Shown here: positions 34,495-37,709 of the stretch, piece by piece
Layout: every line of letters starts with the position of its first letter
Numbering within the stretch: the stretch's first letter is position 1
DNA from: Candidatus Peribacteria bacterium
GTDB lineage: Bacteria; Patescibacteriota; Gracilibacteria; Peribacterales; Peribacteraceae
Length of the DNA stretch: 64,000 nt
Direction: 5' to 3'
NCBI GenBank assembly: GCA_023245765.1
Contig: JAHFJP010000001.1
Location: forward strand, 8,190 to 72,189
Translations under genes and position numbers: made by a program
Notes under the pieces: generated by a model
Databases searched by the model: none
Told to the model about the DNA's origin: nothing
What the model saw: the letters and a program-made list of their open reading frames with translations, nothing else

Positions 34495-35205
34495 GTGAAT
34501 CAGGAGCCAATTCTCATCGAGCCTCTGTCGCCACTCAAGCCGATTTATCTGATGTCCGAACAAGGAGTGACCGACGACCAGATGCGGGCTATTACCGAGG
34601 GTATTCATGCGGTGCTCAATGTGGCGCAACAGAAAATGCCAATTTATGACTTTGGTCATTGGCGTCATACGCAGTGGCGTGACAATGGACAATTGCGGCC
34701 GTTCCACAGTGTTGATTGGTATCTTGAACGAGCACAAGAAGAGAGCGATCGTGCAGAGCAACTAAACGCAGACACCCTGCTCAATCTGCTCGCCATGGAA
34801 CCCTGGCGCAATCCCGATGAGGGCGGTCAACGTCATTATGACGTCGTTGTTCTCCAGAGTGATCTGTATTCCGGAAGCGACAACAACCGTTTCATTATTG
34901 GAGGAGCGTATCCCGATCTGGGAGCGGCGATCTCCGTGAACAGATTTCAAGGATTGGAACCATCGTTGCAATTTGATTGCATCGTGACGGAGACCATCCA
35001 CGAGATGGGCCATGTTTTCGGACTCATACCTCCTGGGCGTCAAAGGAATGTTGAAGAATCGTTGGGAAAGCACTGCACAAACGTCTGTAGTATGCGACAG
35101 GGGGTGAATGTGCCGATGGATTGGATTCGGTTTACCCGCGATCGTCTTCAGCAAGGACCATTCTGCACTGACTGTGAACAGGACCTGCGAGGGTTCTTTG
35201 CATAA
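34495..35205 (+). CDS. Archaemetzincin-like zinc metalloprotease
   Basis: HEMGHVFGL...HC...CSM...FCTDC. Confidence 0.7.
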   Translation: MNQEPILIEPLSPLKPIYLMSEQGVTDDQMRAITEGIHAVLNVAQQKMPIYDFGHWRHTQWRDNGQLRPFHSVDWYLERAQEESDRAEQLNADTLLNLLAMEPWRNPDEGGQRHYDVVVLQSDLYSGSDNNRFIIGGAYPDLGAAISVNRFQGLEPSLQFDCIVTETIHEMGHVFGLIPPGRQRNVEESLGKHCTNVCSMRQGVNVPMDWIRFTRDRLQQGPFCTDCEQDLRGFFA

Positions 35206-35243
35206 ATGATGCATTCTTTTTAAGCATGCTGTACACTCCGAGC

Positions 35244-35291
35244 GTGATCCGCTTCATCACCACGACCGCGACGACCACGACCCTCCTGTAG
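35244..35291 (+). CDS. Thr-rich leader peptide (M)IRFITTTATTTTLL
   Basis: GTG 7 nt after TACACT, with 7 Thr in 8 codons and a TAG stop. An alternative in-frame ATG lies at 35226. Directly upstream of thrS. Confidence 0.8.
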   Translation: MIRFITTTATTTTLL

Positions 35292-35349
35292 GGATGGCTC
35301 TCGCGTGCGGTGAATCCCAGAGCCTCCCCCTACCGAGGTTCTTTTTTTT
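35289..35349 (+). terminator. Attenuator: terminator with overlapping antiterminator
   Basis: GAGCCTC(35320)-8nt-GAGGTTC followed by T8. Alternative pairing GGGAtGGCTCT (35291-35301) with AGAGCCTCCC (35319-35328). Confidence 0.75.
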
Positions 35350-35372
35350 CCTGTACGTTTCCCCGTACCACC

Positions 35373-37709
35373 ATGCCGCTCGATACCTATTCCAAGCTGA
35401 TTGAACTGCTCGATCAGCATAAAGCGAAGTACCGCCTGATCGATCACGAGCCCGAGGGCCGGACCGAAATCGTGAGCAAGATGCGCGGCAACAACGTCTC
35501 GCAGGCGGCGAACTGCATTGTCATGATGTTGAAGATTGGGAAGAAAGAGACGAAGTACGTCCTCGCTGTCTATCCCGCGGATAGGAAGCTTGATTTCAAT
35601 GCAGTGAAAGCATTGTTCAATGGAACCTACGCGTCGTTCGCGACCAAGGAGAAAGCGGAAGAACTTGCGGGCAGCGTTCTTGGGACGGTGCTGCCGTTTT
35701 CCTTCAATGACGATCTCGAACTCATTGTCGATCCTCTTCTTCTGGAGAATGAGGAGATCTTCTTCAATGCCGCACGGTTGGATCGTTCCATGGCGCTGAA
35801 AACGAAAGACTATGTCGCGATCACGAAACCGCGGCTCGAATCCATCGCGCAGTCAGCATCATCCGCATCAACCGGAGTCGCGGTTTCACCGGGCAAAAAG
35901 AAAGAAGGACCTGTCGTCGATGATCTCTACAAACTGCGCCACTCGCTCGCACACGTGCTCGCGCAGGCGGTGACTAAACTCTGGCCCGCGACCAAGATCA
36001 CGATTGGGCCGCCAATTGAGTACGGCTGTTACTACGATTTCCTCTTCGAGAAGCCAATTTCCGAGGAGCACTTCCCCGCGATCGAGAAGGAGATGAAGAA
36101 GATCATTCAACAAGGTCAGACCTTCCGATGCGATGAACTTTCCGCAGCCGATGCCAAGAAATTTTGGAAGGGTCGCAAGCAGCAGTTCAAAGTCGAACTC
36201 ATTGAAGATCTGGAGAAGAACGACAAGGTCACGACCGTGACCAACTACGCCAACCTCGGTCCGAAAGGGGAGGAGACGTTCGTCGATCTCTGTCGTGGCG
36301 GCCATGTGGAGAATCTGAAGGAAATTCCCGTCGACGCATTCAAGATCATGACATTGGCCGGTGCCTACTGGAGAGGGGATGAGAAGCGCGAGCAGCTCAC
36401 CCGGATTTATGTCGCCGCGTTCCCATCGAAAGCCGAACTCGATCAATATCTGCTGATTCTCGAAGAGGCCCGCAAGCGCGACCACCGCAAGCTTGGCAAG
36501 GAACTTGATCTCTTCACGTTCAGCGAACTCGTCGGGCCCGGACTTCCTTTATGGACTCCGCGGGGAACACTGCTGCGGAATTTATTGGATGGCTATGTGT
36601 GGGAACTGCGCAGCGCGAAAGGCTACGAGCGCGTGACGATCCCGCACATCACCAAAAAAGAACTCTACGAGACGTCCGGGCACTGGCAGAAATTCCAGAA
36701 CGATCTGTTCCATGTGCGGACGCGTGAGGGGCATGACTTCTGCATGAAGCCGATGAACTGCCCGCACCACACGCAGATCTTCGCGAGCAATCAACGGAGT
36801 TACCGCGATATGCCGCAGCGGTACGCCGAAACCACGACCTGCTACCGCGACGAGCAGACGGGTGAACTGCACGGGCTCTCGCGCGTTCGGGCCTTTACGC
36901 AAGATGACGCGCACGTCTTCTGTCGTCCAAGTCAGGCGAAAGACGAGATCCTGAAGATCTGGGAGATCGTCGATACGTTCTACCAGACGGTCGGATTTGG
37001 AAAGCTCCGCGTACGTCTCTCACTGCACGATCCTGCTGCGTTTGAAAAATATCTCGGCACGCCCGCGATGTGGAAGAATGCGGAAGGGGAGCTCCGGAGT
37101 ATCGCGGTCGATCGCAAGGCGGACTTCTTTGAAGCACCCGGTGAGGCGGCATTCTACGGTCCCAAAGTCGACTTCATTGCAAAAGATTCCATCGGACGCG
37201 AGTGGCAGGTGGCGACGATCCAGCTCGATATCAACATGCCCGAGCGGTTTGACCTCTTCTGCATCGATGAGAAGGGCAACCACGAACGCTGCGTGATGAT
37301 CCATGCGGCGATCATGGGATCGCTCGAGCGCTTCCTCTCGATCTTCATCGAACATCATGCGGGCCTCTTCCCGCTCTGGGTCGCGCCTGTACAGGTGGGC
37401 CTCATCCCCGTTGCGGGAAGTCATGAAGATGCCGCCCGCGCGCTCGAGGCACAGCTCAAACAACACGGCATCCGGACGCAGTTCTTCGGTCATGAAGACT
37501 CACTGGGGAAGAGAATCCGTGATGGAGAGATGTGGAAGATTCCCTATCTGCTCGTGATGGGGGATAAGGAGGTGGAAGCGAAGAGTGTGACGGTCCGCAA
37601 CGTCAAAACCAAGAAGCAGGTAACGGCGTCGATCCATGAGTTCCTCACCAAGACGATGGAGGACGTTCGGGACAGACGGTTGGAAGCGTCGATTGGAATA
37701 CTAGAGTAA
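35373..37709 (+). CDS. thrS: Threonine-tRNA ligase with N-terminal YbaK/ProXp-type domain
   Basis: HSLAH, DLCRGGH, AGAYWRGD, RDHRKLG, KPMNCPHH, HGLSRVR and AFYGPK. The first ~160 aa are YbaK-like (GTVLPF, FFNAAR). Start moved to ATG 35373. Confidence 0.96.
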   Translation: MPLDTYSKLIELLDQHKAKYRLIDHEPEGRTEIVSKMRGNNVSQAANCIVMMLKIGKKETKYVLAVYPADRKLDFNAVKALFNGTYASFATKEKAEELAGSVLGTVLPFSFNDDLELIVDPLLLENEEIFFNAARLDRSMALKTKDYVAITKPRLESIAQSASSASTGVAVSPGKKKEGPVVDDLYKLRHSLAHVLAQAVTKLWPATKITIGPPIEYGCYYDFLFEKPISEEHFPAIEKEMKKIIQQGQTFRCDELSAADAKKFWKGRKQQFKVELIEDLEKNDKVTTVTNYANLGPKGEETFVDLCRGGHVENLKEIPVDAFKIMTLAGAYWRGDEKREQLTRIYVAAFPSKAELDQYLLILEEARKRDHRKLGKELDLFTFSELVGPGLPLWTPRGTLLRNLLDGYVWELRSAKGYERVTIPHITKKELYETSGHWQKFQNDLFHVRTREGHDFCMKPMNCPHHTQIFASNQRSYRDMPQRYAETTTCYRDEQTGELHGLSRVRAFTQDDAHVFCRPSQAKDEILKIWEIVDTFYQTVGFGKLRVRLSLHDPAAFEKYLGTPAMWKNAEGELRSIAVDRKADFFEAPGEAAFYGPKVDFIAKDSIGREWQVATIQLDINMPERFDLFCIDEKGNHERCVMIHAAIMGSLERFLSIFIEHHAGLFPLWVAPVQVGLIPVAGSHEDAARALEAQLKQHGIRTQFFGHEDSLGKRIRDGEMWKIPYLLVMGDKEVEAKSVTVRNVKTKKQVTASIHEFLTKTMEDVRDRRLEASIGILE

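Follow-up and report, generated by a model that had tools for sequence, protein, structure and literature searches.

A predicted threonine-codon attenuator on a putatively leaderless transcript upstream of thrS in Peribacteria and related bacteria

We analysed the region upstream of thrS, the threonyl-tRNA synthetase (ThrRS) gene, in a 64,000-nucleotide (nt) stretch of a Candidatus Peribacteria bacterium genome (contig JAHFJP010000001.1 of assembly GCA_023245765.1). The whole stretch is called the window below and coordinates are window positions; G000 denotes the source genome (1,447,856 bases, assembly 95 % complete) and other G numbers its relatives. Comparative sequence analysis and folding models make it likely that thrS is controlled by a ribosome-mediated transcription attenuator sensing charged tRNA-Thr. 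The element consists of a −10-like hexamer, a short open reading frame (ORF) dominated by Thr codons, a G-rich segment at the leader stop codon and an intrinsic terminator whose 5′ arm can pair with that segment.

Direct reading identified the hexamer TACACT at 35232–35237 on the forward strand (context TGTACACT), the putative promoter P1 of a leaderless transcript, separated by the 6-nt spacer CCGAGC from a GTG codon at 35244. This codon opens a forward-strand ORF of 15 amino acids (35244–35291, with TAG at 35289–35291) encoding MIRFITTTATTTTLL, the codons of which are GTG ATC CGC TTC ATC, then the run ACC ACG ACC GCG ACG ACC ACG ACC, then CTC CTG TAG. The run (codons 6–13, 35259–35282) comprises seven Thr codons and one Ala codon and also forms segment 1, the 5′ strand of a helix designated 1:2. 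Only four short frames with a comparable run (8–60 amino acids stop-to-stop, at least six Thr in eight) occur across all six frames of the genome, the leader being one of them, and by our own arithmetic the probability of finding such a frame within 400 nt upstream of thrS on the same strand is about 5e-4, so that a chance origin of the Thr-rich frame at this position is unlikely. The downstream gene is thrS itself (35373–37709, forward strand, start ATG 35373, 778 amino acids), which scores 640 bits against the NCBIfam model TIGR00418 with a cut-off of 383.65.

A consensus scan located an intrinsic terminator between the leader and thrS (35319–35349, forward strand), consisting of an 8-bp stem with arms AGAGCCTC (35319–35326) and GAGGTTCT (35335–35342), an 8-nt loop CCCCTACC and a run of eight Ts (35342–35349). 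Segment 2, GGGATGGCTCT (35291–35301, forward strand), starts at the final base of the TAG and can pair, with one U bulged, with segment 3, AGAGCCTCCC (35319–35328, forward strand), to form an antiterminator. The antiterminator and the terminator are mutually exclusive because positions 35319–35326 serve as the terminator 5′ arm and belong to both pairings. As an isolated duplex the antiterminator is predicted at −16.0 kcal/mol compared with −10.5 kcal/mol for the terminator hairpin. The hexamer, the GTG leader with seven Thr in eight codons, the hairpin with its T8 tract, the competing post-stop pairing and the identity of the downstream gene had all been put forward in a preliminary description of this DNA, and each was borne out by direct reading, the consensus scan, the duplex energies or the profile match.

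The 138-nt region has a minimum free energy (MFE) of −44.1 (z = −3.5), with loops CCCCUACC and UUUCCC, and 1 of 200 shuffled sequences folded as well. In the MFE structures of the untranslated RNA the 1:2 helix spans 35257–35313 on the forward strand and encloses a small hairpin, CCCU/AGGG, whose loop extends over positions 1 and 2 of the stop codon; this hairpin is present in a consensus of six sequences with compensatory changes. Without a ribosome, the Thr codons of the G000 element base-pair with 35293–35313 and the terminator forms (MFE −35.4 kcal/mol). A ribosome mask with its A-site at Thr codon 7 or 8 changed the optimal structure (−27.3): the G-rich post-stop segment now paired with the terminator 5′ arm and the terminator was lost, as it was for every A-site position on Thr codons 6–10, while an A-site at the stop codon restored it (−13.2). 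The attenuation logic of E. coli thrL that the preliminary description had proposed is thus reproduced in silico, with the terminator off at the Thr codons and on at the stop.

Based on these folds we propose the following mechanism. Transcription would start at or beside GTG 35244 from the TACACT promoter, giving a leaderless mRNA, and a ribosome would translate the 15-codon leader while RNA polymerase advances. With Thr-tRNA plentiful, the ribosome would reach TAG and cover segment 2, whose start lies inside the stop codon; segment 3 would then be left to pair with segment 4, and the hairpin with its T8 tract would terminate transcription about 24 nt before thrS. With Thr-tRNA scarce, the ribosome would stall within the Thr run and leave segment 2 free, so that GGGAUGGCUCU could pair with AGAGCCUCCC, block the terminator and allow the polymerase to read into thrS. 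If no ribosome were present, the Thr codons of segment 1 would pair with segment 2 and the terminator would form.

A ThrRS search found thrS in all 41 relatives examined, and a first protein-anchored scan detected a Thr-rich frame in 7 of the 29 loci that had upstream sequence. One of these seven (L027 in G029) is without a clear terminator. The other six leaders share the full architecture, namely TAnnnT 6–8 nt before a GTG or ATG start, a Thr run, a G-rich post-stop segment (usually GGGUGGC or GGGAUGGC) and a hairpin with T-run 30–50 nt before thrS. A covariance model (R1) built from the six aligned leaders (alignment A1) matched 82 of 151 Peribacteraceae genomes at E ≤ 0.01. The best 30 matches all lie directly upstream of a thrS coding sequence and carry 5–8 Thr in eight codons, while 16 of the next 43 rows examined were linked to thrS. 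The architecture therefore precedes thrS in at least 46 of the 151 family genomes, with degenerate Thr runs in two of them (G080 and G143), a lower bound since only a minority of the matches with E of about 3e-4 to 0.01 were examined. Several of the weak matches that were examined proved to be Thr-rich coding or low-complexity sequence. Beyond the family, 10 of 23 rows in a class-level sample were linked to thrS (families f8, f11, f23 and f24), as were 2 of 9 rows in a phylum-level sample of other classes (families f40 and f86). In total thrS-linked Thr leaders occur in at least 58 genomes from seven families. A ThrRS contig search covering 80 loci detected no Thr-rich frame (at least five of eight) upstream of thrS in 17 further Peribacteria and 61 non-Peribacteria loci, and the distribution of the leader is patchy.

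Among 56 thrS-linked elements, 55 contain a leader ORF of 13–21 amino acids (median 15), which starts with GTG in 31 and ATG in 24, and 54 have 5–8 Thr in eight codons. The peptide sequence outside the Thr run varies from element to element, whereas the RNA pairing is conserved. The genes preceding the element also vary, with dnaA in about 9 of 28 loci and other genes elsewhere, 7 of the 28 being on the opposite strand. Since the upstream neighbours differ between loci, the element travels with thrS and not with the preceding gene. As a separate observation on gene order, thrS in many Peribacteraceae lies directly 3′ of a gene that by reading has a DnaA-like C-terminal motif, with or without a leader in between (L005, L007, L009, L011, L016, L018, L022 and many loci with R1 matches).

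We applied the ribosome-masking analysis to the best 30 elements (alignment A2), scoring an element as switching if at least three A-site positions on Thr codons abolished the terminator and the stop-codon position preserved it. A masked ribosome at the stop codon left the terminator formed in 30 of 30 elements, and 25 of 30 switched, compared with a mean of about 20 % for shuffled spacers; the G000 element switched while only 1 of 20 of its own spacer shuffles did. Across the 30 relatives 85.7 % of terminator cells are paired, both sides have changed in eight of eight pairs, and none of 500 shuffles scored as high. The antiterminator helix shows changes on both sides in six of nine pairs, its bulge positions differ between sequences, and its duplexes average −13.3 kcal/mol compared with −9.9 for shuffles. 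A coordinated change of all three segments can be followed by eye between G000 (GGGAUGGCUCU, AGAGCCUCCC and GAGGUUCU) and G097 (GAAGGGG, CCCCUUC and GAAGGG). Variant leaders were also found at L132, L133, L135, L145, L146 and L157 (G144, G161, G142, G107, G163 and G061), in which the ORF continues through the G-rich segment 2 and ends in ...TTTTSSEGGC or ...SHEGR; in these a terminating ribosome would occupy the antiterminator strand itself. With this architecture upstream of thrS in at least 46 of the 151 family genomes and in six further families, the comparative data fall in line with what the preliminary description had proposed for a single locus.

Sequence features also point to a leaderless start. 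A TAnnnT hexamer precedes the leader start by 6–9 nt in 49 of the 56 thrS-linked elements, and by exactly 6 nt in 25. Genome-wide in G000, the first start codons of 1054 long ORFs show a sharp peak of TAnnnT at exactly 6 nt upstream (110 of 1054), with 215 at 5–8 nt as against 28–75 at control offsets, while Shine-Dalgarno (SD)-like tetramers give a flat profile without a peak before start codons. Leaderless initiation therefore appears to be common in G000, and a leaderless leader mRNA, as previously suggested for this locus, is the simplest reading of these sequence signals. In the available text of PMC10783764, Candidatus Peribacter riflensis is placed among SD-scarce organisms without a conserved CCUCC.

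A number of observations weigh against the attenuator or limit the strength of its support. The two ends of the transcript, leader translation and the threonine response are predictions from sequence. The Thr richness of R1 matches is partly built into the model, leaving only their adjacency to thrS as independent evidence. The leader is absent in the same-genus relatives G002, G004, G005 and G006 and in the partial G001, and it is therefore dispensable. Five of the 30 elements (G010, G109, G164, G145 and G112) did not switch in the masking analysis, and the unmasked MFE structure forms the terminator in only 18 of 30. The A2 alignment was fitted to the terminator of the model, so that the covariation result is biased in the terminator's favour. 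Support for the antiterminator is weaker than that for the terminator: its fixed columns are paired in 74.1 % of cells compared with 70.1 % in shuffled alignments (4 of 500 shuffles as high), and only 12 of the 30 elements have an antiterminator duplex that beats 95 % of its shuffles, although this last figure is depressed because the automatic segment definition fails where the leader ORF runs through segment 2 (for example ...SSEGGC before the stop). On a read-through transcript thrS would also be without an SD sequence. Further doubts attach to a second −10-like element, TGTACGTT (35352–35359, forward strand), which follows the terminator at a distance of 13 nt from the thrS ATG and could drive thrS expression independently of the attenuator, and to the GTG start of the leader, since only 10 of 64 long ORFs with a putative leaderless start begin with GTG.

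The second −10-like element leads to a reading in which the attenuator is real and thrS also has its own promoter, so that the leader would provide a boost under Thr starvation over basal expression from an uncertain P2. This would refine the attenuator proposal without replacing it, and we regard it as a real but rather unlikely possibility. A TGTAnnnT of the same type as the leader promoter stands 12–13 nt before the thrS ATG in G000, G003 and G118, 10 of 30 leader-bearing loci have TAnnnT 7–10 nt ahead of thrS, and relatives without a leader appear to express thrS from such a promoter geometry, with TAnnnT, usually as TGnTAnnnT, a few nt (typically 6–8) before the ATG. Set against this, the 13-nt spacing in G000 is off the 6-nt leaderless peak of the genome, in 9 of the 30 loci the interval from terminator to thrS contains no TAnnnT, and a T-rich tail followed by GTA can yield such hexamers by chance. 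A different departure keeps the attenuator and gives up the leaderless start, with transcription beginning further upstream and the GTG reached by another initiation route. Besides the minority share of GTG among putative leaderless long ORFs, leaderless messages in E. coli start poorly from GTG, and 7 of the 56 elements lack TAnnnT at 6–9 nt. The presence of the hexamer in the great majority of elements, the genomic peak without any SD signal and a 6-nt interval between hexamer and GTG that leaves no room for a ribosome-binding site make this departure improbable.

Two further explanations would dispense with ribosome-mediated attenuation altogether. The hairpin and T8 might merely terminate the gene upstream, with the Thr-rich frame incidental or an independent micropeptide. 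That gene (34495–35205) encodes 236 amino acids with an HExxH motif, has no Pfam family and only a sub-threshold NCBIfam match to an archaemetzincin-type zinc metalloprotease (36.9 bits against a cut-off of 145); it lies on the same strand as thrS and ends 114 nt before the terminator stem, as this explanation would have it. The unit of ORF and terminator recurs upstream of thrS in the 46 family genomes behind differing genes that in some cases run the opposite way; few short frames in the genome carry a Thr run; and it is the RNA pairing and not the peptide outside the run that is conserved. Coincidence is thus largely refuted by comparative sequence data and we give it very little credence. 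Slighter still is the chance of another known form of thrS control. In Bacillus and other Firmicutes thrS is usually controlled by a T-box leader, which senses uncharged tRNA directly and needs no translation, and in E. coli by a translational operator bound by ThrRS. The leader described here is only 129 nt long, and T-box leaders are much longer. An Rfam cmscan of 34500–36000 (E ≤ 10) returned no T-box, no Thr_leader (RF00506, which we take to be the family of the enterobacterial thrL) and no other regulatory family, only two chance snoRNA-like matches; the element is therefore neither a T-box nor related to the thr leader of enterobacteria. The accessible portion of PMC2965389 mentions autoregulation by ThrRS.

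The attenuator preferred here can be set beside the threonine physiology of its host. thrS is single-copy in G000, which has tRNA-Thr genes with anticodons UGU, CGU and GGU, and the leader codons ACG and ACC are its two commonest Thr codons. No homoserine dehydrogenase, aspartate-semialdehyde dehydrogenase (asd) or aspartokinase was found in the 95 % complete assembly; its two AA_kinase matches are a ProB-like protein and a 247-amino-acid protein, and a threonine-synthase-like protein falls below every curated cut-off. This fits the earlier suggestion that the organism probably cannot make Thr, and would be consistent with, while at this level of assembly completeness it does not prove, a dependence on imported threonine.

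In its layout the element resembles E. coli thrL, where a Thr-codon run in a short ORF is likewise combined with alternative 1:2, 2:3 and 3:4 hairpins and an intrinsic terminator upstream of the regulated gene, and where stalling of the ribosome at Thr codons favours the antiterminator, as the folding predicts here. Unlike thrL, the Peribacteria leader precedes a synthetase gene and not a biosynthetic operon, its regulatory run contains Thr codons without Ile, it opens with a GTG 6 nt behind a −10 hexamer whereas thrL opens with an ATG preceded by an SD sequence, and its host belongs to the Candidate Phyla Radiation (CPR). The proposed outcome, read-through of a terminator before thrS when charged tRNA-Thr is low, is also that of the thrS T-box. 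The pheM-pheST system of E. coli is cited as a gamma-proteobacterial example of aminoacyl-tRNA synthetase (aaRS) attenuation in the available text of PMC1262725, where attenuators before trpS and leuS are also predicted in Streptomyces. Peribacteria leaders, as predicted here, and pheM-pheST have in common the attenuation of an aaRS gene through a leader peptide with cognate codons, and they differ in amino acid and phylum, have no homology, and the pheM leader is SD-dependent.

Leaderless precedents come from actinobacteria. Leaderless leader peptides before leuS, trpS, alaS and thrS are described for Streptomyces lividans in the consulted sections of PMC8079986, and these share with our putatively leaderless element the placing of leader peptides on leaderless transcripts before aaRS genes, including a proposed thrL-thrS pair. 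According to the same sections, thrL of S. lividans carries just two Thr and lacks a clear terminator, in contrast to the Peribacteria leaders with 5–8 Thr in eight codons, a clear hairpin and T-run, and a presence in at least 58 genomes of a different phylum. Mycobacterial polycysteine leaderless short ORFs act as attenuators of downstream genes (bioRxiv 10.1101/834739, as far as its available text goes) and are similar to the element as predicted here in being leaderless, in their single-codon run and in an amino-acid-responsive attenuation; they encode Cys and precede biosynthetic operons, whereas the Peribacteria leader encodes Thr, precedes an aaRS gene and has a canonical intrinsic terminator. 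A His leader before hisS paralogues in bacilli is noted in the accessible portion of PMC2965389. Judged by the available text on Streptomyces, where leaderless aaRS leader peptides were already reported, the mechanism is not new in kind. In the literature searched, which left most subscription journals and supplements outside its scope, we found no report tying CPR, Patescibacteria or Peribacteria to leader-peptide attenuation, in agreement with the statement of the preliminary description that this had not been described for Patescibacteria. What is described here is a large new family of a known type of regulator, in a lineage whose regulation is almost unknown.

The ThrRS encoded at the locus has its own peculiarities. 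Pfam assigns it an N-terminal YbaK/ProX-like tRNA_edit domain, tRNA_SAD, the class II core and the anticodon-binding domain, and the TGS domain is absent. The tRNA_edit domain (PF04073) corresponds to residues 32–148 (window positions 35373–35880 cover residues 1–170), and the ThrRS of most relatives begins near residue 180 of the G000 protein. ThrRS fused to the editing domain is also found in G003, G023, G008 (partial), G118, G144, G163, G061 and G143, and a free-standing 161-amino-acid relative is encoded on contig C54 of G000.

Other R1 matches correspond to short ORFs with Thr/Ile or Thr/Lys/Met runs followed by terminators (L149, L154, L156, L162, L165, L177, L195, L196, L204 and L208). 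By Pfam, such leaders precede genes for a ThrA-like aspartokinase-homoserine dehydrogenase (G212 and G177b), an ACT-domain aspartokinase (G083) and asd (G056). By N-terminal sequence, the genes behind the leaders are ThrA-like in G202 and G211, aspartokinase-like in G156, G116 and G056#3, and asd-like in G117; the Pfam AA_kinase score of the G156 protein is below the cut-off. Leaders before asd are sometimes arranged as tandem pairs (G056 and G117).

G000 itself contains a second, Thr/Lys leader, MLRTLVTTTTKTTTSRQGRVQLQ (contig C70, 1413–1283, reverse strand, locus L179), which is putatively leaderless: a TTGACT-N16-TACGAT promoter lies 8 nt before it, and its terminator reads CCCCTT...AAGGGG with T6 at the end. 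The 259-amino-acid acidic protein encoded directly behind it matches no Pfam family, and 150 family genomes yielded no homologue. We identified three more candidate leaderless short ORFs in G000, MIFPGKLVGMMQMMTPVRAGCSC (Met), MILRSISLALVVVVVTP (Val) and MFRTFTSHRHAHHHSHAGEERMASAELQF (His), each with a terminator, at C34 +953, on the reverse strand of C50 (start 15642 along the reverse complement) and at C52 +7216. These precede 238- and 227-amino-acid proteins without a Pfam family and a 249-amino-acid methyltransferase-like protein. These three proteins and the 259-amino-acid protein are unrelated to one another. It is conceivable, though we place the chance a little under even, that CPR bacteria of the class Gracilibacteria use a family of leaderless, often GTG-started attenuators as their main amino-acid-sensing system. 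On this view the Peribacteria and the rest of that class have no SD signal and begin many of their genes leaderless. If this were so, Thr leaders would govern thrS while Thr/Ile and Thr/Lys/Met leaders would govern the ThrA-like, aspartokinase and asd genes, the G000 proteins behind the Thr/Lys, Met, Val and His leaders would be parts of amino-acid-responsive regulons, and 70S leaderless initiation would be tightly coupled to transcription in CPR cells.

Gene regulation in CPR/Patescibacteria is almost unknown, as these organisms are uncultured and their regulation has usually been deduced from missing transcription factors. Because the mechanism is a textbook one, the finding owes its value to the lineage and to the breadth of the family; no new principle is involved. 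A Thr-codon attenuator conserved upstream of thrS would show that CPR cells monitor tRNA charging, that they couple translation to transcription and that they initiate on leaderless, often GTG-started messages, and one small element makes all three questions directly testable. The family would constitute a new cis-regulatory RNA without an Rfam model, usable for annotating CPR genomes, and related leaders could give unknown genes amino-acid-linked roles.

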